Part shown: positions 2,405 through 23,885 of the stretch, piece after piece
Numbering within the stretch: the first letter of the stretch is position 1
How the letters are laid out: every line of letters starts with the position of its first letter
Virus record (IMG/VR): IMGVR_UViG_3300020261_000002
Span: 1-59,809 of that record
DNA: 59,809 bases
From: a virus
Taxonomy: Duplodnaviria; Caudoviricetes
Direction: 5' to 3' (one strand)
Translations under genes and position numbers: made by a program
The notes under the pieces: model-generated
Told to the model about the DNA's origin: nothing
What the model saw: only the letters and a program-made list of their open reading frames with translations
The model's database searches: none

Positions 2405-4501
2405 CTAATCCATAACATCTGAGATACCTTTTCTTAGATTTCTTTCAGATCTCAACTCATTGAGTAACTTCTGTCTGGCAGCTGGTTGTTCATCTACAGG
2501 TAATCTTGTTATGTCTTGTAAAGCTTGATTTGCTTTCTGTGTAAAGTCTGCACCAAGAGTTTTCTTATCTCCGGGATCAGAAGGTGCTCCTGTTCCTAAA
2601 ACTCCTCCACCTCTAGCAAGAGGTATTCCCTGTGGGTTTCTAGATATCATTTCTTCTCTAGCTGCTCTACCAGATTTAGTTAATTTTCCTGATCTATCTG
2701 TTCTTATATTTGCTATTACCTGTTCGTTTGTTAAACCTCCCATTCCTCTCTGTTCTCTTGGAGTCATTCCTACATTTTTGAAAGGAACGTCTGTTGGTTT
2801 CTTTGATGCTCCCTTAGAATATTCACCTTCTTTACTCATCGCACCACTAACAAACTTACCTAGTTCTCTACCATAAATTCCTGTGCCAGCTTCCCCTGCT
2901 CTTGAATCCTCTTGAGAAGGAGGGTTAACTACTTTTTTAGATGTTCTTCTTACTTGCTCCCTTGTAGGTCCTAGTTCACCAGCTGGTCTTTTTCCTGTAT
3001 ATTGTAAATTTTGTCCTGTAGCTCTTTGACTTAAATCTACAGTAGAAGGTCCGACTATTGCTCCTGGTACATCAGCAGTTTCTCCCTCAACAAGATCTTT
3101 TCGTGTAGGTGTTTCTGTGACATTGACATCCATTAATCTGGCACGACCTTTTATTTCCCTACCAATTGCAGTTTTAGTTCCTGTTTCTAAATTTTTAACA
3201 GACCTCATTTCTTTCATATCTCTTGAGAGAGGTGCTCCACCATCATCTTTACTAGTTGTTGCTGTTTGTATTCCTTTTCCTGTAGTTTGTGCTTGTGAAT
3301 AATCTTGAGTTCTTTCTTCATCAAAAATTTTATCAGCTGCAAAAGATGCATCCTCTGCACTCAATCTTGTTTTAATAGCTGCATCTTGTTTTACTGCTCC
3401 ATGAAATCTTCTAACTAGTCCAGGATTATTTTTATTTAAAACTTTATTAGCAAGTCTTTCTGCACGTCTTTTATCACGATCACTTGCTCCAGAAACATTC
3501 CCCTGTGTTATCTGATTTAGTACTTTTCCATATGTACTATCGAACTCACCTTTATACTCATTAATTGTATTTGCTACACGAGTTTCTTCGTGTACAGCCA
3601 TCTTGGTATCGTGCTTACTTTTTAGAGTAGGTTCACCAATAATTTTATTAACTTTTGGTGTTTTATTATCTGCACTTTGTAGTAATGCTGTATTCTTGAC
3701 ATCCGTTGCTACAGCTTTGGGTTGCTGTGGTCTAGCTCCTGTTTTAATTGATGCAACAAGATTGTCAATTTTACCCATTGTATTTAGTTCATCTCTTGTA
3801 TAAAATTCATCATTTTCTGCAGAAGGTTGAGATGCAACTACTGGTTGATTTGTCTGTGATTTTTGTTTTTCAATTTCATATCTTGCAGCTCTAACACCAC
3901 TCTTATCTACACCATATCTTTCTGCATTAAATTCTTGTAATTTTGCTCGTGCAAGTGCCTTTTCTTTTTCTGCAGGAGATAAATCTCTACCAAGAATTGT
4001 GCCAGGTGCAGGCTTTGTATTATCTGCTTGTTTATAAGCAGCAAAAGCAGGTGTTTCTTGTGCAATAGGTGTAACTTTTTCTTGTTGTAAAGCACTATAA
4101 GCTGCTTCAGATAGAGGTTGCATACCAGCTGAAGACTGTTGTTGTACTGGAGGTGGTGTTATATCACCCTGATTAGGTCTTGTATATGTTTTTGTACGTG
4201 GTTTATCACCTAAATTACGTAAAAATGTAGTTACAGCATCTCTAGTTCCTTGTCTTCTAGCTGCAGCTACTGCACCAGCTACTAAACCAACTCCTAAAGC
4301 TCCAGTTGCTATTTGTTTACCGGAAATATTAACTTTTTCTGCTTTTTCTTCTGATTTTCCCCCTTGTGCCCCTTGTTTATCCATATTTTGGACAAATTTT
4401 TTGACATCAGGACCGACTGCAGCCTTTTCTTTTGCAGTTCTAGGGTATCTATTACCTGTCATCCTCGACCATAAGGAGTAATCTTGCGGAGATATGGGCA
4501 T
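2405..4501 (-). CDS. large low-complexity protein, putative internal virion protein
   Basis: 698 aa, K/Q/A/G-rich, one hydrophobic Gly-rich segment (IATGALGVGLVAGAVAAA). Confidence 0.6.
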   Translation of the reverse strand: MPISPQDYSLWSRMTGNRYPRTAKEKAAVGPDVKKFVQNMDKQGAQGGKSEEKAEKVNISGKQIATGALGVGLVAGAVAAARRQGTRDAVTTFLRNLGDKPRTKTYTRPNQGDITPPPVQQQSSAGMQPLSEAAYSALQQEKVTPIAQETPAFAAYKQADNTKPAPGTILGRDLSPAEKEKALARAKLQEFNAERYGVDKSGVRAARYEIEKQKSQTNQPVVASQPSAENDEFYTRDELNTMGKIDNLVASIKTGARPQQPKAVATDVKNTALLQSADNKTPKVNKIIGEPTLKSKHDTKMAVHEETRVANTINEYKGEFDSTYGKVLNQITQGNVSGASDRDKRRAERLANKVLNKNNPGLVRRFHGAVKQDAAIKTRLSAEDASFAADKIFDEERTQDYSQAQTTGKGIQTATTSKDDGGAPLSRDMKEMRSVKNLETGTKTAIGREIKGRARLMDVNVTETPTRKDLVEGETADVPGAIVGPSTVDLSQRATGQNLQYTGKRPAGELGPTREQVRRTSKKVVNPPSQEDSRAGEAGTGIYGRELGKFVSGAMSKEGEYSKGASKKPTDVPFKNVGMTPREQRGMGGLTNEQVIANIRTDRSGKLTKSGRAAREEMISRNPQGIPLARGGGVLGTGAPSDPGDKKTLGADFTQKANQALQDITRLPVDEQPAARQKLLNELRSERNLRKGISDVMD

Positions 4502-5032
4502 TTACTAGCTAAAAATCTTAGATATAACGATTTTAAGTGGGCTCAACCTATAATCTACCCCCAAAAAGGTCCTTATAACCCTCAAATTGGGGTAAAAATT
4601 AGGAGAGACACTTGGTGTAATACCTACGCAACGACTAGTGCGAGGAAAAAAAAAGAATATATACATATATACTACCTGACTACGTTTGGTTGTTTATTAT
4701 GTGCATTTTCTACCAAATATTAGGGTATTTCCCCTTAATATCCCTCCAATTTCTAATAAGAAGAGGGTTCTCCGCCCGAATCTGCCAGGAGATGAGTCGG
4801 TTATAACTTATCGATTTGGCAAAGGCTGTGGAAACTGAATTTATTTTTAATTCTGTCTACGTTTAATTCTTATTTAACTTCTGTGTAAGTTATTAATCGG
4901 AAGAAACGATAGGTTTTGATGTATTTATTATACACCTCCTGAGCATTGAGGATAAACTGCTTTGTTGTTTACATTAACTACCATGTTAAAACTTCAATTA
5001 ACTATGTTCCTTATCCTAATTCTTATTTGATT
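4502..5032. other. divergent non-coding region between late (-) and early (+) blocks; possible genome end or packaging region
   Basis: No credible ORF, strand switch, short G/C runs and imperfect inverted repeats. Confidence 0.4.
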
Positions 5033-5392
5033 ATGGGCATACGTTTATACCCTTGCACAGATAACACTGCAAACCTTGCAATGCTTATCGATGTGCCACA
5101 GGAGACTTTTGATCGCCTTGACTACATCAAGGAACAATGCCAGGAAGAGAAAGCTGACTGGTATTACGAATACTATGAACGCATCAGTGATGATGAAGAA
5201 CTTCAGAAAGCTGATGACTTCTTAATTTATGGTTGGGGTATCTTTAACTACCCAACTGATTCAGAATATGGTGATACATTTAAGCCTGACTTCGCTTCGA
5301 GGTTGTTTAATTCGGCAACCAAGAAAGATATGTCTAAACACTTATCTGTTGATCAAGTCATTCAATTATCATCTGGACTACGTTGGTGCTAA
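5033..5392 (+). CDS. early hypothetical protein
   Basis: ATG at 5033 within track ORF 4946..5392; first gene of the + block. Confidence 0.7.
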   Translation: MGIRLYPCTDNTANLAMLIDVPQETFDRLDYIKEQCQEEKADWYYEYYERISDDEELQKADDFLIYGWGIFNYPTDSEYGDTFKPDFASRLFNSATKKDMSKHLSVDQVIQLSSGLRWC

Positions 5393-5394
5393 CT

Positions 5395-5718
5395 ATGATT
5401 ACTCCTAAAACTCCTCCAAAGAAATCTGCGACCATCCGTGGATTTCTTTTCAAAACTTTACTTTTTGATGCTGCCATGCGAATCACTCCTCCTCTATCTA
5501 TCTTTGCCTTTGCACTAGCTGGTGCTGCCATTTACAAGGTATCACCTGACAAAGCAAAGAAGACTATCAAATCTACCATGTTAGATCTTAGAAATCAGTT
5601 ATCTGATTGGGTAAAACCAAATGTAGATGATGGATTTACTGAGTCTGACTACGTTTATGAATGTAGTAACGATGATGTGGATGTAGATGATAAATCTTAT
5701 CCTCCAGAAACTGAGTAG
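5395..5718 (+). CDS. early membrane-associated hypothetical protein
   Basis: Hydrophobic segment (PPLSIFAFALAGAAIY) and acidic tail. Confidence 0.65.
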   Translation: MITPKTPPKKSATIRGFLFKTLLFDAAMRITPPLSIFAFALAGAAIYKVSPDKAKKTIKSTMLDLRNQLSDWVKPNVDDGFTESDYVYECSNDDVDVDDKSYPPETE

Positions 5719-5793
5719 GTATTACTCCTACTTGGTGGAAGGTGCAAATCCTTCCATCATCCTTGACCTAGACATGTCACAAAACTGTCCTTT
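5713..5793 (+). ncRNA. structured intergenic leader: hairpin, T-loop-like hairpin and H-type pseudoknot
   Basis: gagtagg/cctactt; tggtggaagg-TGCAAAT-ccttccatca; tgac/gtca stem whose loop gaca can pair with downstream tgtc. Confidence 0.55.
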
Positions 5794-5814
5794 GTACACT
5801 TTATGGAGATTTCC

Positions 5815-6183
5815 ATGCTTAACACAACATTCACTGGTAACATCACTTTCGCAGAAATTGTGGAACAAGATGCCAAGGTAGAAAACCCATTCCTCAAGAT
5901 CGTTGTTGCTGTCAACGACGTGAATGACAATGGACTACGTATTACTGTTCGTACCAAGAATGGTTTACTAGAAGCTGCCCGTAACGGTGAAGATCTAGTC
6001 GGTGCTCGTGTAGTTATCAACGGAACTATAGATATTGCATCTATCCGTTCACACTACGTCGATGACGAAGGTAAGTGTGTAGCACTCAAGCAACCTAACG
6101 CAAGAGTGTATGCAAATTCAATCGAAAGAATGAATCGCAAACCTGCACCTGCCACAGTTCAAACCGAACTAGCTGTCAGCTAA
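5815..6183 (+). CDS. OB-fold single-stranded DNA-binding-like protein
   Basis: SSB-like pattern (NTTFTGNI...LKIVVAVND...VGARVVINGTI); GGAG SD before ATG 5815. Confidence 0.55.
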   Translation: MLNTTFTGNITFAEIVEQDAKVENPFLKIVVAVNDVNDNGLRITVRTKNGLLEAARNGEDLVGARVVINGTIDIASIRSHYVDDEGKCVALKQPNARVYANSIERMNRKPAPATVQTELAVS

Positions 6184-6248
6184 CTGACGAAACTCTCCTT
6201 CGGGAGAGTCGACGGGAGATGACCTACCCGTCCTGAAGAGTCAGGTCA
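6184..6248 (+). ncRNA. type II hammerhead ribozyme with pseudoknot
   Basis: P2 ctgac/gtcag, GAAA, P3 ctctcc-ttcg-ggagag, GUC site, P1 gacggg/cccgtc, CUGAAGA core; L1 tgacc pairs with 3' tail ggtca. Confidence 0.93.
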
Positions 6249-6274
6249 CAACTGTCCTTTATGGAGATTTTTCC

Positions 6275-6430
6275 ATGCTTAACACAAGACTACTAACTAC
6301 CCAAGCCCAGTACAAATACACCAGGCTTGAAACTGCTGGTCCTAAACCAAACCAGTCAGTCGGTTCTTACATCAAAGAACAGACGCAGCCAAATGACTAT
6401 TGGCAAATGTTCTATGGATACAGAGGCTAA
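6275..6430 (+). CDS. 51 aa hypothetical protein downstream of the ribozyme
   Basis: Own translation MLNTRLLTTQAQYKY...; GGAG SD; TAATG coupling to the next gene. Confidence 0.6.
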   Translation: MLNTRLLTTQAQYKYTRLETAGPKPNQSVGSYIKEQTQPNDYWQMFYGYRG

Positions 6431-6672
6431 TGACTACCATTCAACCTTGGTTGTATCCAAACAACCCTTCTGTAGATCGGATTGTATACATTCCTCTACA
6501 ATCTGCTCATATCCTTGAGTATCAAGAAGAAATGATTGATGCTGAAGGTAATGTCTACTGGAAGACTGTGGACTCCACCACAATCGGAGGAGCTACATCT
6601 GTAAAAGAATTTCTTGAACAGATGAAAGACTTCTATGAATCTAAATCCTGTCGTAAAGATAGGATGATGTGA
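6430..6672 (+). CDS. early hypothetical protein
   Basis: ATG overlapping upstream stop, inside track ORF 6400..6672. Confidence 0.65.
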   Translation: MTTIQPWLYPNNPSVDRIVYIPLQSAHILEYQEEMIDAEGNVYWKTVDSTTIGGATSVKEFLEQMKDFYESKSCRKDRMM

Positions 6673-6677
6673 TTCTC

Positions 6678-6717
6678 TCCCTCTGTCTCTTCGGAGGCAG
6701 ACTGAGGGATTCCCTCA
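6678..6717 (+). ncRNA. intergenic UUCG hairpin with alternative pairing
   Basis: tctgtctc-TTCG-gaggcaga (one G-U), closed by tccc/ggga; overlapping palindrome tgaggga-t-tccctca. Confidence 0.5.
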
Positions 6718-6741
6718 TTGTTCTTTACCACCCTAACTACC

Positions 6742-6972
6742 ATGTGGTCTTCTAAACTTTATCAAAAGTCAGCAAGAGATGCTTGCTTACTAAATATTCG
6801 CAATGACTTTGCAGAATTAATTATGGTTGATCCTGTTTCAGGTAACAGTAAACACATCTATTTACATGCACCTTTGAAACTAATCAACAAGAAAGTTGAA
6901 GAACTAAAACAGAAAGGTTATAAAGAGCTAGACTCTATTAATTTATCTTTAAGAGGTCTTGCTGCTGTATGA
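6742..6972 (+). CDS. early hypothetical protein
   Basis: ATG 6742 within track ORF 6718..6972. Confidence 0.65.
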   Translation: MWSSKLYQKSARDACLLNIRNDFAELIMVDPVSGNSKHIYLHAPLKLINKKVEELKQKGYKELDSINLSLRGLAAV

Positions 6973-7169
6973 ATAACCTATCTCCTATCACCCGTGCCTT
7001 CCTAACAGTTGGCATCGGTGTATTTATAGGCATACTACCTGTGTTTATGATCATCAACATGCTATCTACTACAGCTATCAGATTCTGTGGTAGATATGGT
7101 TCTGACTACACCATCGTTAACCTTGATACTCCATTCGGAACTATCAAGAGATGTGTAGCTAAGAACTAA
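6969..7169 (+). CDS. small membrane protein
   Basis: One TM helix, ATGA overlap. Confidence 0.6.
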   Translation: MNNLSPITRAFLTVGIGVFIGILPVFMIINMLSTTAIRFCGRYGSDYTIVNLDTPFGTIKRCVAKN

Positions 7170-7172
7170 ATC

Positions 7173-7428
7173 TCTGGGCAAACTTCAAGAGGTAACAGTA
7201 AGAGCAAATGCTCAACCGTCTGACATAATCCCTCTTGTAAATGTAAGTCCCAGACTACTCCCATCTCTAGTGAAGATTGTTGTAGTGCTCATCTGCAGTC
7301 ATGGATAATGCCTCTGCAGTAACTGACACTAACCTCAACCAATAATCTTTGTAGGTGCAAATCCTCAATGGGAGACTTGGACTATGCAATGATATGAACT
7401 TTGGTAGTTGGTTCGTTGTGTAGTCCAA
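7173..7428 (+). ncRNA. three adjacent structured RNA domains
   Basis: Nested stems 7173-7254; tRNA-like domain 7258-7374; 16-bp G-U-containing hairpin 7377-7428. Confidence 0.6.
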
Positions 7429-7454
7429 CTCTGTCCTTTACTCTTACTATTACC

Positions 7455-7841
7455 ATGACCATGAAAACCTTTTGGGCTTGGAAACATTCCATCAACAGCA
7501 CTGAGGAAAACAAGAGTGGCTATACCAAGATCCTCGCCAGAGATATGAACTCTGCTTACAGAAAAGCCCACAAACATTACAAGCATCACATGTTTAACAG
7601 TGACTTCAACGTCAGTGTGATGAGTGGCGAAACAGATAAACATGGCTATGCAAAAGAAGCACAATACAGTACAGGTAAGTGGACTAGAAAAGCCTGGTCA
7701 ACTTACAAGTATTTCCATAGCTTGGAACCAGAGATACAGGAACGTGTTCACAATCACTACAAAGAATTTGGTGATGACTGGAAAGGTCAAGACAAAACAG
7801 ACCTACGTTTCCTTGTAGCTTTATTAAGACAGGAGAAATAA
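7455..7841 (+). CDS. early hypothetical protein
   Basis: ATG 7455/7461 within track ORF 7401..7841. Confidence 0.7.
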   Translation: MTMKTFWAWKHSINSTEENKSGYTKILARDMNSAYRKAHKHYKHHMFNSDFNVSVMSGETDKHGYAKEAQYSTGKWTRKAWSTYKYFHSLEPEIQERVHNHYKEFGDDWKGQDKTDLRFLVALLRQEK

Positions 7842-7843
7842 TC

Positions 7844-8989
7844 ATGAAGAATAGCAAACCACTTCTTTCAAAGAAGAAGAAAGCTTACCTTGCAGTAACA
7901 CAAAGAGTAAATGAACAACTAAAATCTGAATTTCATATCTCAGATAGTACAGCTCTTGCTATGTATGATAAAGACATTTCTCCTTATGGTTACCATAGTC
8001 ACCAGAACATGTTAATCACAGAAGGATTAGCAAAGTATTTTTTCAACAAACGTGTTACTGAGAAAAACATTACAGATGAAGATGGTAATTTATTAGTAGG
8101 AGAAGGCTTTGGACTACCAGAAACCAATGGTTTATGTCCAAACTTCTATATCACTGATGATCTAGCTAACTCTCTGATAGAAACAGATACACCTAAAGGT
8201 AAATTAGATATCAGTAATGAAGTATTACCTGTAATCAAAGTTATATTTTCTAAAAAGTTTTTTAAATTTTCAAAGATGACCATAACTCAAGTGGATGCTG
8301 GAATAAGAGTCAAAGCATCTGTAAGAGCACCATATGGACCTGATCGTTTTGGAAAAGAAACTCTAGGATCTGACCAGATCAAAGTTACTCATCATGCATA
8401 CATGCCTATGGAATTTTTTATTCCATTAGATGGCAGTGGTCACTGCATGTTATGTGACACAAGAGAATGGTTTAAAAAGCATTTATTACACAGAAATTAT
8501 TTCAAGATAAGATTCTCCACAATGGATGAGGAATATCATCTAAGTCACATTGATTCACATGGCAACATGGATATCAAAGAATTCTTTGGAAGTATGACTC
8601 ATGAGTTTGTAGAAGCAGTTATAGAACAATACATAGAAAATCTACATAAACCCTACCGTTTTGTAGTCAATCTACTTTGTTTAATGACTCAAGAACCAGA
8701 GATTCTTACAGTACAAAACTCTACATCTAAATACACAACAACTAACAGTAAAGGTTTTGATGCTGAAAAGATCAGCAATGTACCTAACGTGCATTGGCTT
8801 GGAGAAAACTTTACAACAAGAGTAGTTAACTCTACTGCTGCTTCAGAAGATACTGAACGCACCAGAGGTAAACCTAAGAAGTCTCACTGGAGACGAGGAC
8901 ACTGGCACACTGTGTTGCAGGGTCCAGGAAGAACACAGAAACAACTCAAATGGTTTAGACCTACATTTATCAGAGGACATGCATCATGA
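7844..8989 (+). CDS. phage protein with C-terminal HWRRGHW motif
   Basis: KSHWRRGHW...W.RP.FI tail typical of a widespread uncharacterised phage family. Confidence 0.75.
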   Translation: MKNSKPLLSKKKKAYLAVTQRVNEQLKSEFHISDSTALAMYDKDISPYGYHSHQNMLITEGLAKYFFNKRVTEKNITDEDGNLLVGEGFGLPETNGLCPNFYITDDLANSLIETDTPKGKLDISNEVLPVIKVIFSKKFFKFSKMTITQVDAGIRVKASVRAPYGPDRFGKETLGSDQIKVTHHAYMPMEFFIPLDGSGHCMLCDTREWFKKHLLHRNYFKIRFSTMDEEYHLSHIDSHGNMDIKEFFGSMTHEFVEAVIEQYIENLHKPYRFVVNLLCLMTQEPEILTVQNSTSKYTTTNSKGFDAEKISNVPNVHWLGENFTTRVVNSTAASEDTERTRGKPKKSHWRRGHWHTVLQGPGRTQKQLKWFRPTFIRGHAS

Positions 8990-9450
8990 CAACTATGTTG
9001 GGACCTACATCTATTGATCATTTTAAAAATCTTCATGATCATTACTTGAAGAAAGAACCTATCGTTCATGCGTATGCAACACCATACCACGATGACCCTG
9101 CTGATAATCCTGCAGCCATGTGGTCTTTTGTCATGCATGAAAAGAGAGACTTGGAGCGTATAGCTTTCAAGACTTACATTCATCCACAAGGTGACTTTTA
9201 TAATGGCTACTATGACATCTGTGACATAGAGAAAGGAACCTTTGACTGTGACAATATGAGGCTAGGAGAAGTGTATCCTGTCATATTATATGCACACCAT
9301 GAAACTATGCTTACTGTTGGCTGTGTAGTAAGGACATCAGATCATCCTGATATAGTCACAGGCGAAGAACAACTTGCTCTCTGGATCTACTATCCAAGTG
9401 CAGAAAACATTGAGTCATTTGACATGGCAAGTGGTCATGTCTATAAGTAG
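8986..9450 (+). CDS. hypothetical protein
   Basis: 154 aa ORF, ATGA overlap. Confidence 0.7.
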   Translation: MTTMLGPTSIDHFKNLHDHYLKKEPIVHAYATPYHDDPADNPAAMWSFVMHEKRDLERIAFKTYIHPQGDFYNGYYDICDIEKGTFDCDNMRLGEVYPVILYAHHETMLTVGCVVRTSDHPDIVTGEEQLALWIYYPSAENIESFDMASGHVYK

Positions 9451-9461
9451 TTAAGAAAAGG

Positions 9462-9540
9462 TAGCAATATTAATTAAAATTATCTATCATAGTTTGTAGA
9501 TGGCTGTACAGAGACTACTTCATGTGGTTTCTCTACAGCC
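9462..9540 (+). promoter_or_regulatory. sigma70-type promoter followed by a 5' hairpin
   Basis: TAGCAA-17-TATCAT (9462-9490); hairpin ggctgta...tacagcc 9502-9540. Confidence 0.5.
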
Positions 9541-11675
9541 TTTCTCAGCTGTGTCCTTTACATTATTATCATGTCAAACTACGACCCTATCACCGGCAAA
9601 GTCGGTAACATCGGACCAAGAACTGTCCAGTCTGTAAACATAGCAACTAACAATGGACCTATTGTTGGAAGAGTATTCAATGCTGCTAACAAACAATCAA
9701 TCAGATTAACCGGTAACAACCTCAGTGCATTGATACAACAATACAGACTAAACAATATAGATATAATTAATTTCTTTAAATAGTTATGTCTACAAAAAAC
9801 ATTACAGTCACTGTGTGTTTTGACGTTGATCTATTTGAATACAATAGATACTTCAAAGTCCGTAAAACAGATGGTGAAGTTATTGCAATTTACGATTTGA
9901 TCTGCACTCAAAGTGACAGATTAAATGAACAAGGTAAACCAGAAAACATTCGTATTTACTTTCCTGAAGAGGAGGAGTCTAAAAATGCTTGACAATCCAC
10001 TACCAGATCAGGTGATGGCTGAGATGGATAAAATAGCACACGCTAGAAACTTTGAAGAAAAGTGTAGAGATGATGCCAAAGAACTATGTGAAGACAACTA
10101 TGTCTTTGATAGTTTGATTGAACACTTTCAAGACTGGTATTTTCTCTATCGTGTAGACCACCCAGAAGATCAACTTGATGGTGACAAAGACCTCATTGAT
10201 TCCTGGTGGGATGAAGAAGGTGATCTTTATGATGACTACATCAGTCCTTATGAAGACTATGATCCTACTCCTAATGGAGATTCACCATACAGTGATGCTG
10301 AATATATTATCACACCAGAAGAACGTAATCGTATGGCTTTCGAAAGTAAAAGAGAGTCACATGGTAGAGGCAATCCTTTTAATTGGTAATTATTATGTCT
10401 GACAAAACTTACAAAACCTACAACGTAGAAGCCAAAGGTACAATCAAACTTTGGATGGATGTTGAAGCTTCATCTCAGGAAGAAGCAGAAGCAATGGCTG
10501 ATCAAGTCAAAGAAAGAATCTATGGAGAGCCAGGTCCCTGGCGACCTCTATATGATGGCTACACTTTAGAAATCACATCTGTTCGACCAGAACCAGATAA
10601 ATCTTGCATGAGACCTTTCATCCCTGGGTTCGATGATTGAACCTAACATGGATCTCCTCGAAGCTATGCGTGTAGAAGCTAATCTCTGCTACGAAAGAGG
10701 AGATGACGAAGATGGTGATGCCCTAGTTAAATCTATCTTCGATCAGATATTTCCTGGACTTGTAGAAGAAGCAAAACGAAATCCTACTTTCATCTATCAA
10801 CTAATCGTTCTCGCAAACACTGAGAAAGATGAGATAAAAGCTACCCATTACAAGTCTATTATCTTGTACTTAAAAGACAACGGAGTTAAATTCTAATGAG
10901 CGTTTCAAACCACTACAGACATGTCAAAGTTCATGAATATGAAACAACACACAGAGACATGCTACGAGCATCTACTGATGAGCTTATCGCCAGAGGTTAT
11001 GCACAAATTCTAGAAGAAGATGAGTTGAAAGTACTAGCTCAGTATCATTACGAAAAGTTCAGAAACTTTATGGCTCCACTATTCAGAGATAAGGATCAAG
11101 ACATAGAAGATGTTGTATCATCTGAGATCACCATACAAATGCCTCCAGTAAACTTACCTGTCAGTAAAAAGTAAGTTAGGATAGAGACAATACAAAAGAA
11201 TAAATGACAGACGCTGATCTATTCAATGATTACTATGACAAACTCTGTTTCATCTATCCTTCCTGGTCTAGTAATCTAATACTTGAAATAGCAGAGTACT
11301 GCTGCACACATTCACAACACACTACCGAATCTGACGAGCTAAAATGGAGAGCCTTGTGCTATCTGAATTCTAAGAAAGAAGAGGAGGCAAGTTATTAATT
11401 TATCTGTGAGGTTTTTATGGTCAAGAAACTTGGTAAGCGATACCGGCAAACCAAGCAAGCAATTTATACAGCATATGACATTATTTCTCTGATAGTTATC
11501 TTACTCAGCTTTGATAAACTACTTACTTCCAAGTCAAGATCTGTTGAACCCAGACAGGTTGCCAGACTAATCGAGAAGCTTCCAAAGATTAAGAAGATTC
11601 TGTATGATTCAGCACCCTGGTGGGCATTCGACGACATGGATGTGAAGTCTAAATAAAACTTTACAATCTAAACTA

Positions 11676-11743
11676 TTTACATTTTCCAATGAGTGGTTAG
11701 TATACCTGAGCACTCATAAATATTGTGCGTATTTATTACTACA
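11676..11743 (+). promoter_or_regulatory. sigma70-type promoter with downstream NtcA-like box
   Basis: TTTACA-16-TAGTAT (11676-11703); GTA-N8-TAC at 11729-11742. Confidence 0.4.
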
Positions 11744-12273
11744 TAGGTCATGTATCTATACAGATTTATGTATTCCATAATGAATTACCGCATGAGGAAA
11801 TAAAGTAAAATGATTGAAAGCTCAAACACATATCCAGATCTAGTTTGGACAGTAAATGCACTCCGTTCTGACGGAAAGACAGAAGTAATTCGTGTATGTA
11901 AAAATTGTTGTGATGCTGACGAAGCGATACAAAATGAACCAAACAAATACTATAAGTCAGGACCAATCCCTCTTTCTTAATGAATCATTCTGTAATCGAT
12001 TACATGATCTTCGTCTACTCGACTGTAGAAAAGAAAGAGGCAACATATGTGCCACGCTTTTCTACTATCGATGAAGCAAGCAATTTCGCAAACTTATTAA
12101 GAGCTACACTTCCCAGACATGGCTTTGTCATCAGTGAGCCTTATCCTATTGTCAGCGATTCCTTAGAAAAGGAATTCAAAGAACGATGTGATACTCCTGC
12201 CGATATATTAGGCAGACTAGACGAGCTATGATAAAACTATTGTGTTAACTTAAGAACAGAATACATTTTTTCT

Positions 12274-17499: not shown

Positions 17500-17699
17500 A
17501 CCAAGAGTAAAATGATTACATATCGAAGTATATGTAATGGGTAAGAAATTAGTAAGAGCGAAAAAGTTATATTATTTAATTCTTGATGATGAATCTAAAT
17601 ATTGTTTATTAAAGTTAGATATAGCTTCTAAAGACTATGTAGAACTTGATCATGACTTAGATCTCTTTGCACTTAGCAGACTTTTATTTCAACAGGACA

Positions 17700-18638
17700 A
17701 TGACAGCTACCACAAAATCCCAAACAAAAAAGAGTAAGCTCGACAGACTACCAGAAGATATGCAAAATCTTCTGTGTGATGGCATCTCAAAAGCCATGCA
17801 AAACTGGGGAGGATTTCTGAAGATGTCTCAGAAATTTACTACTTACAGTTTCAACAACACCATGTTGATCTGGATGCAACAACTACAACGTGAGTTAGAA
17901 CCCAGCTCACAGGTTGCAGGTTACAAATCTTGGCAAACTAAATTTAAACGTCAAGTCAAAAAGGGTGCCAAGTGTTACAGAATACTTGCACCTAGACCCA
18001 TAAATAAGATGGGTGAAGATGGTAAACCTATCCTCAATAAAGATGGTAAACCAATGATCAACTTCATGATGTTCGTCGGTGTAAAAGTATTTGACTATCG
18101 TGATACAGAAGGTGAACCATTACCAGAAAAACCAGATACATCACACGTTATGAAAAACTTAGAAGGAGATGCAATGCCTGGACTTCTACAGGGTCTGTGC
18201 AAGGTTGCAGAGGCTCGTAAAGTGAAGTTACTTCGCAATGTATCTGAAGCAGAAATGGATGGTGCTCATGGCCGTTGTTGGTTCACTGGAGAGAATGGTA
18301 AAGCAAGTAAGATCGAACTCAAAGAAGGTCTTAGTATTCTCTCTGAGATACATACCCTTGCACATGAACTTGGTCATGCAATACTCCACAATCGTGATGA
18401 GTATCTAGAGCATGACACATCATCCATCAAAGAGTTGGAAGCAGAGTCAGTTGCTATGCTAGTCTGCAACTCTTATGACATCGATACATGTAAATGTAGT
18501 TTCGATTACATCATTGGTCACAACACCAGGAACAAAGATGTTCAGGAAAGTATGCTGACTGCTGGTGATCGTATCTACAAAGCTCACAAAGAAATTACAG
18601 CTATCGTTGATGAACATCTCAAGGAGGTATCCAAATGA
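17700..18638 (+). CDS. ArdC-like ssDNA-binding domain fused to a zincin metallopeptidase-like domain
   Basis: YSFNNTMLIWMQ, VAGYKSW, RQVKKG, VFD..DTEG; C-terminal HELGH...ELEAESVA. Confidence 0.8.
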   Translation: MTATTKSQTKKSKLDRLPEDMQNLLCDGISKAMQNWGGFLKMSQKFTTYSFNNTMLIWMQQLQRELEPSSQVAGYKSWQTKFKRQVKKGAKCYRILAPRPINKMGEDGKPILNKDGKPMINFMMFVGVKVFDYRDTEGEPLPEKPDTSHVMKNLEGDAMPGLLQGLCKVAEARKVKLLRNVSEAEMDGAHGRCWFTGENGKASKIELKEGLSILSEIHTLAHELGHAILHNRDEYLEHDTSSIKELEAESVAMLVCNSYDIDTCKCSFDYIIGHNTRNKDVQESMLTAGDRIYKAHKEITAIVDEHLKEVSK

Positions 18639-23186: not shown

Positions 23187-23885
23187 ATGAACACTGCAAA
23201 AGTTTGTGCTAAATATGTAGGTGAAGGAACTACAGAACATGGCATACGTTTCACCGAAGTAACTGTATCTGCAGTTGGTAAAGGTGAAGATATAAAATTA
23301 AGAGTGCTCTCCACCAAAGCAGGAGGAGATACATTAGGTTCCTGTAGTAAGGGAGCTAACTTAATTATTGTTGGACGCTTGTATAGAAACAGAGCAGTCC
23401 AGAGTGATTATAATTACTATGTAGTACCTACTCAAAGAATAGAAGTAGTACCTTGTCCTGTACCTTTAAATACTGTGACCATAGCTGGAGCTTACTGGTT
23501 AAATGATAATGACAAGAAGCTCAATCAGGATGATCAGAGACATACCTTTACTATATTGACCAGTACTCCTGCCAATCAATTACTAAATCATGAGTATGAT
23601 GACACTCTAAGCTTCTCTATTACTTCATGGAGCTATGATGCTCAGAGAATATTACAGACAGCTCACATAGGTCGTCAAATGATTATTGAGGGTTATCTAC
23701 GTTCTTATACTCCAGCTGGAAAAGATACTGGATACATTTCTATAAATGTAAGATCTGGAATAGTTGAGATGTTTGGTAGTAAAGAAAAGAAAAAAGAAAA
23801 TAAGATTGATAATAAATCTGACTCCGCTTCGAAGGTTGTAATTCAAGGTGAAACTAAAGCAGAAGAAGAAAAGTTACCTATCTGA
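23187..23885 (+). CDS. tandem OB-fold SSB-like protein
   Basis: Two SSB-like halves (KGANLIIVGRL; NTVTIAG...GRQMIIEGYLRSY) and acidic tail ending EEEKLPI. Confidence 0.65.
   Translation: MNTAKVCAKYVGEGTTEHGIRFTEVTVSAVGKGEDIKLRVLSTKAGGDTLGSCSKGANLIIVGRLYRNRAVQSDYNYYVVPTQRIEVVPCPVPLNTVTIAGAYWLNDNDKKLNQDDQRHTFTILTSTPANQLLNHEYDDTLSFSITSWSYDAQRILQTAHIGRQMIIEGYLRSYTPAGKDTGYISINVRSGIVEMFGSKEKKKENKIDNKSDSASKVVIQGETKAEEEKLPI

Follow-up and report, generated by a model that had tools for sequence, protein, structure and literature searches.

Pseudoknotted type II hammerhead ribozymes were described in 2011 and occur widely among bacteria and prophages (Perreault et al. 2011, PMC3088659). Ribozymes of the hammerhead class cut 3' of C17, leaving a 2',3'-cyclic phosphate and a 5'-OH, and the type II pseudoknot is required for fast cleavage at physiological Mg2+ (PMC3088659). 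Hammerheads flank single prophage genes, for which a role in the processing of polycistronic transcripts has been proposed (PMC3088659). Cleavage both in vivo and in vitro is documented for three type II hammerheads of Desulfovibrio vulgaris that lie close to phage-like genes (PMC8782182). Catalogues list thousands of hammerheads from bacteria and phages, and their function was still called largely elusive in a 2019 review (PMC6765202).

The stretch of DNA analysed here (the window, 59,809 nucleotides) is a linear 59.8-kb IMG/VR virus record (IMGVR_UViG_3300020261_000002), about 70% complete and with about 37% G+C, whose genes include phage replication, tail-fibre and lysis functions. Its positions 6184-6248, about 1.3 kb into the plus-strand gene block, probably encode a functional type II hammerhead with a loop I/3'-tail pseudoknot, which, judging from the sequence and its conservation, would be a 3' appendage of a small SSB-like, OB-fold gene (the OB gene) and would cut the mRNA. 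A sequence-only reading of the window had proposed a complete pseudoknotted type II hammerhead at this site, and this is borne out by a match to Rfam, by covariation among relatives and by a pseudoknot present in 46 of 46 copies.

The locus shares with the Rfam type II family (Hammerhead_II, RF02276) the permuted topology, in which loops cap stems I and III while stem II stays open, the full core, and a short stem II that leads straight into a loop I pseudoknot of at least 4 bp. It also shares the setting described by Perreault et al., an intergenic site in phage DNA on the gene strand (PMC3088659). The D. vulgaris hammerheads, studied by cyPhyRNA-seq, belong to the same class and lie in a phage-like neighbourhood too; cleavage is shown there, whereas here it is predicted (PMC8782182). 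Hammerhead arrays of prophages and phages (Figure 3 of Perreault et al. 2011, and contig L004 below) likewise start at or beside the stop codon of a small gene, and a role in polycistronic mRNA processing is proposed for them as well (PMC3088659), but each locus of the present lineage has a single ribozyme. The flanked genes are called 'not constant' by Perreault et al., in contrast to the one particular upstream gene found here (PMC3088659). The element is otherwise of a well-described kind, if with uncommonly clear evolutionary support, and what the compared loci add to the class is an SSB-like gene as fixed partner, the joint presence or absence of gene and ribozyme as a polymorphism, and three downstream partners. 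A text search of the literature, judged by titles and abstracts, returned no paper linking hammerheads to phage SSB-like genes.

In an Infernal-type search, RF02276 matches the site above its gathering score. The match (Rfam cmscan) covers 6185-6250 on the plus strand and the full model (1-66) at 37.5 bits against a gathering score of 37, a marginal excess of just 0.5 bit, with an E-value of 4.7e-4 when all 4227 families are searched over the whole window and of 1.1e-7 for that family alone. Both parts of the core, the G10.1-C11.1 pair, the helices and the pseudoknot of the family are all present besides the score, and the permutation is that of type II, with loops closing stems I and III and with stem II open. 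No other ribozyme of any Rfam ribozyme family is found in the window at E<=5. A descriptor of our own, made of the core and the three stems, matches this site alone within the window; its chance rate is 0.005 per window (one match in 200 simulated windows, first-order Markov, both strands), and no match in the 200 simulated windows has stems as long as those observed. The features of the locus are listed in Table 1.

Table 1. Features of the ribozyme and of the gene block around it (window coordinates).
Feature	Position	Strand	Remarks
Intergenic region, about 450 nt	4502-4945		Between divergent minus- and plus-strand gene blocks
Small OB-fold (SSB-like) gene, type A	5815-6183	+	ORF listed from 5803
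Stop codon TAA of the upstream gene	6181-6183	+	Direct reading; motif begins at the next base
Stem II, 5' strand	6184-6188	+	Core 3 bp are 6186-6188; C6188 is C11.1
Core GAAA (G12, A13, A14, A15.1)	6189-6192	+	Direct reading; invariant in 46/46 copies
Stem III hairpin, 7 bp including A15.1-U16.1	6192-6198 with 6203-6209	+	UUCG loop
Predicted cleavage site C17/G1.1	6210/6211	+	Position from hammerhead numbering of the sequence
Stem I hairpin, 6 bp	6211-6216 with 6227-6232	+	10-nt loop 6217-6226
Core CUGANGA, here CUGAAGA (N7 = A)	6233-6239	+	Direct reading
Stem II, 3' strand	6240-6242	+	G6240 is G10.1, paired with C6188
Pseudoknot, 3' tail with loop I	6243-6248 with 6220-6225	+	5-bp core 6221-6225 with 6243-6247
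Downstream leader	6252-6274	+	Pyrimidine-rich CTGTCCTTT motif, then GGAG 6263-6266
Downstream 51-aa gene (MLNT...)	6275-6430	+	Neighbour of the ribozyme in the window
Gene of about 80 aa	6430-6672	+	Listed as a 90-aa ORF from TTG 6400; probe for relatives
Conserved long imperfect hairpin, terminator-like hairpin (6703-6717) and T-rich tail	6671-6726	+	

Direct reading of 6000-6420 finds every core nucleotide where the sequence-only reading had placed it, and the motif does begin at the base right after the upstream stop codon. A6192 pairs with U6209 (positions 15.1 and 16.1), C6210 is C17, and U6209-C6210 is the cleavage dinucleotide. The proposed architecture needs one amendment. The pseudoknot and the 5-bp stem II that had been drawn alongside it both use G6244, and the 6-bp pseudoknot of relatives also takes A6243, so that these pairings are not all possible together. 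One additional pair in stem II made a construct of Perreault et al. less active (PMC3088659). This result, the shared use of 6243-6244 and the layout of the Rfam consensus suggest that the active fold is likely one with a 3-bp stem II (6186-6188 with 6240-6242) and a pseudoknot of 5-6 bp directly after it. The thermodynamic fold is modestly better than that of shuffled sequences (z = -2.4).

Relatives were gathered by the protein of the gene two places downstream (ORF 6400-6672) and not by the ribozyme itself, which avoids circularity. A metagenome scan with this protein gave 50 loci (protein identity 58-98%), and the ribozyme lies on the gene strand in 43 of them as well as in two viral contigs (L008 and L009). 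Among the seven ribozyme-free loci, three have no usable upstream DNA (L012, L045 and L056), and the four with enough of it (L014, L017, L044 and L059) are true absences. The 46 copies of the ribozyme, aligned by MAFFT, comprise 22 distinct rows.

Standard pairs occupy 99.7% of the 352 pair cells of this alignment; sliding the partners by 1-3 columns lowers the share to 34-51%. In stem I, three of the six pairs change on both sides while all cells (100%) remain paired, and the five different stem I sequences found among relatives are every one complementary. The covariation score (0.290, against 0.171 in shuffles) is matched by none of 500 shuffles; this control ignores the relatedness of close relatives, so the 0/500 is no probability and the slid control is the safer one. 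Stem II pairs 6186-6188/6240-6242 are formed in all 22 distinct rows, with one change from A-U to G-U, and the G10.1-C11.1 pair is C-G in 22 of 22. N7 is the sole core position left free in hammerheads, and variation in the core of the 46 copies is confined to it (A in 19, U in 11, C in 16). Stem III has 7 bp in 24 copies and 6 bp in 22, one U-A pair being gone from both strands: U6196 and A6205 are jointly missing in an RNA-library contig and in several loci, and with them one complete pair. In the MAFFT alignment the loss shows up as a substitution on both sides, and it is to be counted as a pair deletion, not as a compensatory change. The UUCG loop of stem III is present in 46/46 copies, as is the 5-bp core of the pseudoknot, whose sixth pair (U-A) occurs in 31 of 46, with a 1-nt linker in 15. 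The pseudoknot sequence is invariant within the lineage, and its support is conservation, not covariation.

Rfam searches over 20 of the loci reported 13 of 16 ribozyme-bearing ones at E<=0.1, with scores of 30.4-39.7 bits that place this lineage at or around the RF02276 cut-off; four of the 16 reach the gathering score and three are unreported at that E-value, while no ribozyme is reported in the four ribozyme-free loci scanned. A chance or decayed, inactive hammerhead-like sequence would agree with a window score barely over the cut-off and with most scanned relatives falling below it, but such an origin is extremely improbable given the simulated expectation above and the 46 copies, which keep an invariant core and covarying stems while the upstream gene diverges beyond recognition. 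The lineage also shows that real type II hammerheads can lie just below the Rfam threshold, as 12 of the 16 scanned copies would be missed at the gathering score.

In IMG/VR, one of two single flanking proteins gave one weak locus (L002) and the other none; a profile of the type A OB gene (see below) gave no loci, and that of type B again solely the L008 and L009 contigs. L006 and L007 are close relatives found via the polymerase, and their contigs end short of the ribozyme. In a prophage and host search with the stem III pattern, covering one genome for each of 185,579 species, none of the 50 matches has the type II arrangement; all are read as chance, 48 having no core nearby and two having the core upstream.

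A first DNA pattern searched in viral contigs gave three loci (L003, L004 and L005). L003 was rejected, having no Rfam hammerhead match, and L005 has a weak type III-like one. L004, an IMG/VR contig of an unrelated phage, carries four hammerheads in 1.2 kb (361-1563), one of them type III-like and below the cut-off and three of type II at 38.2-44 bits, and each of the three type II copies begins at the stop codon of a small ORF. In the L004 hammerhead at 1498-1563, the sequences of loop I and of the tail differ from those of the window and are again complementary.

The upstream neighbour of the ribozyme is constant. Wherever upstream DNA is present (44 of 44 loci), the sequence CGAAAC is preceded at a distance of 4-6 nt by the end of an OB gene some 120-130 codons long, so that stem II begins at or beside the stop codon. 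This gene is of two types, type A, that of the window, at 28 loci and type B at 16, and the ribozymes of the two are nearly identical; at the DNA level, loci of the two types become alike only some 20 nt ahead of the stop codon and stay so through the ribozyme and into the downstream genes. The downstream neighbour varies: among the 46 ribozyme-bearing loci it is a member of the 51-aa family in 19, of a 91-aa family in 15 and the 80-aa gene in 12 (ten read in the loci and two inferred from protein match positions). The AUG lies 26-37 nt past the ribozyme in all three arrangements. The four relatives with true absence of the ribozyme lack the OB gene as well; there a homologue of 5383-5718 is followed by a gap of about 55 nt and then by the 51-aa gene, which begins with different codons (MHVS). 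As the OB gene is constant in 44/44 loci, the downstream gene is variable and four relatives lack both elements, comparison of the loci indicates that the ribozyme belongs to the upstream gene.

This distribution bears on the idea, raised in the sequence-only reading, that the ribozyme mainly serves the downstream gene, whose 5'-OH mRNA would escape decay that depends on a 5'-monophosphate. The product would begin with a 5'-OH in a 6-bp hairpin plus pseudoknot, and the distance from ribozyme to AUG is held within the narrow range just given whichever gene follows. Against this, the gene that follows is inconstant, belonging to three families, the 51-aa gene stands without a preceding ribozyme in four relatives, and it is the OB gene that is the constant partner. 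A 5'-OH may, moreover, mark RNA for decay in hosts with RNase J. The direction of any effect of the 5'-OH on stability depends on the nucleases of the host; the 5'-OH product of the glmS ribozyme in Bacillus subtilis, for example, is not protected but degraded by cellular RNases (PMC6765202). Service to the downstream gene is thus unlikely to be the main role. Because the linkage points to selection keeping the ribozyme with the upstream gene, 3'-end formation for the accessory gene and its insulation are ranked, on the comparison of loci, above protection of the downstream mRNA.

Gene and ribozyme behave as one accessory cassette, of which the ribozyme is the 3' end, because they are present or absent jointly and are flanked by a repeat. 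The repeat consists of a leader and the first four codons (MLNT), found at 5785-5829 before the OB gene and again at 6252-6289 after the ribozyme, 467 nt apart, and it looks like the scar of a cassette insertion or exchange. Joint presence and absence, the flanking repeat and the fact that similarity between types A and B starts merely about 20 nt before the stop codon would also fit a role of the ribozyme at the level of DNA or recombination, or in ligation or circularisation of the RNA of a mobile OB cassette, instead of mRNA processing. With a single ribozyme per locus, however, no unit-length RNA can be excised; contigs of four sequencing runs show neither a circle nor a deletion joint at the ribozyme, and an unchanging core between stems that covary is the conservation pattern of a catalytic RNA. 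A search by Perreault et al. for circular or spliced RNAs from prophage hammerheads found none (PMC3088659). A role of this kind is very improbable.

On the mRNA-processing reading, transcription of the plus strand would run through the OB gene into the next gene, and the folded RNA would cut itself between C6210 and G6211, 27 nt past the OB stop codon, without a host nuclease. The upstream product would be an OB mRNA ending in the 7-bp, UUCG-capped stem III and one C with a 2',3'-cyclic phosphate. The downstream product would open at once into stem I and the pseudoknot, which would enclose its 5'-OH; a leader of about 25 nt and the next start codon would follow. The mRNA of the accessory gene would in this way be uncoupled from the following gene physically, and probably also in stability and translation. 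The UUCG loop is kept in every copy although catalysis does not need UUCG, which may point to a value of the hairpin in its own right, perhaps as a guard against 3' exonucleases.

Such a cut would be a host-independent counterpart of the nuclease processing sites between phage cistrons. In the early genes of phage T7, RNase III cuts between cistrons, and a stable hairpin then ends the upstream mRNA. The predicted cut resembles these sites in lying between cistrons and in the stable hairpin that would end the upstream mRNA, but host RNase III is needed in T7, whereas the hammerhead needs only Mg2+, and the ends would be a 2',3'-cyclic phosphate and a 5'-OH instead of the 3'-OH and 5'-phosphate of T7. 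A second parallel is RiboJ, an engineered self-cleaving insulator that is placed before the leader of a gene and makes expression independent of the upstream context. Insulation by a ribozyme would likewise fit a cassette that precedes three different genes; RiboJ is an engineered part, however, while the element described here is natural and travels with the upstream gene.

Cleavage might in addition be gated by translation, with the terminating ribosome or a hairpin at 6175-6188 blocking the folding of the ribozyme, so that cleavage would report translation of the OB gene. The fixed spacing of the stop codon and CGAAAC, similarly tight in L004, is in keeping with such a switch, as is a predicted 5-bp hairpin (6175-6179 with 6184-6188) that holds the stop codon in its loop and sequesters the 5' strand of stem II; loci of the L011 type keep this alternative hairpin via a two-sided change. 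The hairpin is, however, weak or different in many variants, and tight spacing may reflect the compactness of phage genomes alone, which makes a translation-gated switch quite improbable.

Tentatively, the leader, the SSB-like gene and the ribozyme may form a portable module in which the ribozyme makes the 3' end and insulates, with cleavage perhaps gated by ribosomes. If so, the cassette could precede unrelated genes, three such partners being seen, since it would bring its own nuclease-independent cut; a protected UUCG hairpin would close the OB mRNA, the next gene would be freed with a structured 5' end, and hammerheads of phages would have a concrete role. The lineage offers a compact natural experiment within one phage population, with a constant upstream gene, three downstream genes and cassette-free relatives, and through this small cassette the idea of polycistronic processing or insulation becomes directly testable.

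The label of the upstream gene as SSB-like, given in the sequence-only reading, holds at the level of the predicted fold but not as membership of a sequence family. The AF2 model of type A has a pLDDT of 78.5, and Foldseek matches it almost solely to bacterial and mitochondrial SSBs and to PriB in the PDB (best E 3e-5, TM 0.5-0.57), so the label is supported for the modelled fold. The type A sequence has no match in Pfam, PHROG or PDB sequences, and Pfam SSB (PF00436) matches none of 22 members at E<=1. All 13 type B members match PF00436, though below its threshold; the best E is 0.026, and member 1 scores 14.3 bits where the family cut-off is 26. The type B profile also matches SSBs of the PDB weakly (E 0.011-0.97), and the type B AF2 model, with a pLDDT of 41, is too poor for use. 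Homology between types A and B is undetectable (BLASTP E 0.4, hhalign probability 0.85%). For the gene of the window, the ATG at 5815 (MLNT...) is a likelier start than 5803, given a GGAG 6 nt ahead of it. The replication genes include another, larger gene (23187-23885) that matches SSB weakly, and the small OB gene therefore looks accessory.

The stretch 3000-10000 is present in 20 of 24 listed marine or seawater runs, from 10 studies and including six RNA (metatranscriptome) libraries. The lineage that bears the ribozyme is one of uncultured marine phages. A blastn search of 5000-9000 against 50,697 phage records gave no match to a cultured phage, and the DNA polymerase reaches no more than 44.9% identity with its counterparts in Roseobacter and Pelagibacter podophages, too little to name a host. 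Four runs were compared with the window through their assembled contigs, which show neither RNA ends nor strand. One such contig (X17, record 27) spans 5662-6384 uncut across the ribozyme and could represent uncleaved RNA or carried-over DNA. Because RNA-library contigs also cover the minus-strand genes at 3381-4498, expression is inseparable from DNA carry-over, and the coverage is compatible with expression and is no proof of cleavage. In run X16, RNA contigs stop at 6205 and resume at 6219, near the cut site and at strain-variable positions; the gap is read as an assembly break and was rejected as a trace of cleavage, being off the cut site and at strain differences. A further difference between strains concerns exactly 63 nt at 4065-4129 that are missing from the contigs of two RNA libraries and of one DNA run; this is an in-frame length variant of 21 codons within a 698-aa minus-strand gene (2405-4501).

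The intergenic region between the divergent gene blocks contains an A-run and an AT-repeat (4645-4672) and is likely a control region. Sigma-70-type promoters matched 14 times in 4300-12000, fewer than the 24.4 expected from shuffles, and a sequence search from the OB gene to the next gene found no promoter-like or terminator-like site, the first terminator-like hairpin beyond being that at 6703-6717. The CTGTCCTTT motif has exact plus-strand copies at 5785, 6252, 7431 and 13492, all four in leaders, and near-matches at 6718 and 9551. It stands 4-21 nt before the starts of small plus-strand genes, several of which have no Shine-Dalgarno sequence; with one mismatch allowed, its 26 occurrences in the window against 18.3 expected are not clearly above chance.

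The hairpin element that follows the 80-aa gene (Table 1) is probably the 3' boundary of a transcription or processing unit. It occurs in 53 copies, all on the gene strand (for example L008 at about 1512-1575 and 2462-2525), and at many loci it also lies ahead of the OB gene. Its outer stems are invariant in sequence, two apical pairs covary, and its GAGGGA segment is contested by the terminator-like hairpin that follows. The hairpin at 6671-6714 has no Rfam match at E<=5, and it was rejected as a second ribozyme on that ground and because a hammerhead core does not fit it by eye. The element may be a processing site of the RNase III type, a terminator/antiterminator pair or a phage-specific signal. 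Small hairpins with loops of the GCAAAT type are also repeated between genes of the same block, at 5741-5759, 7199-7215 and 7352-7368. Elsewhere in the window, a single gene at 17667-18638 fuses an ArdC N-terminal domain with a weakly matching M78 peptidase domain and is anti-restriction-like.
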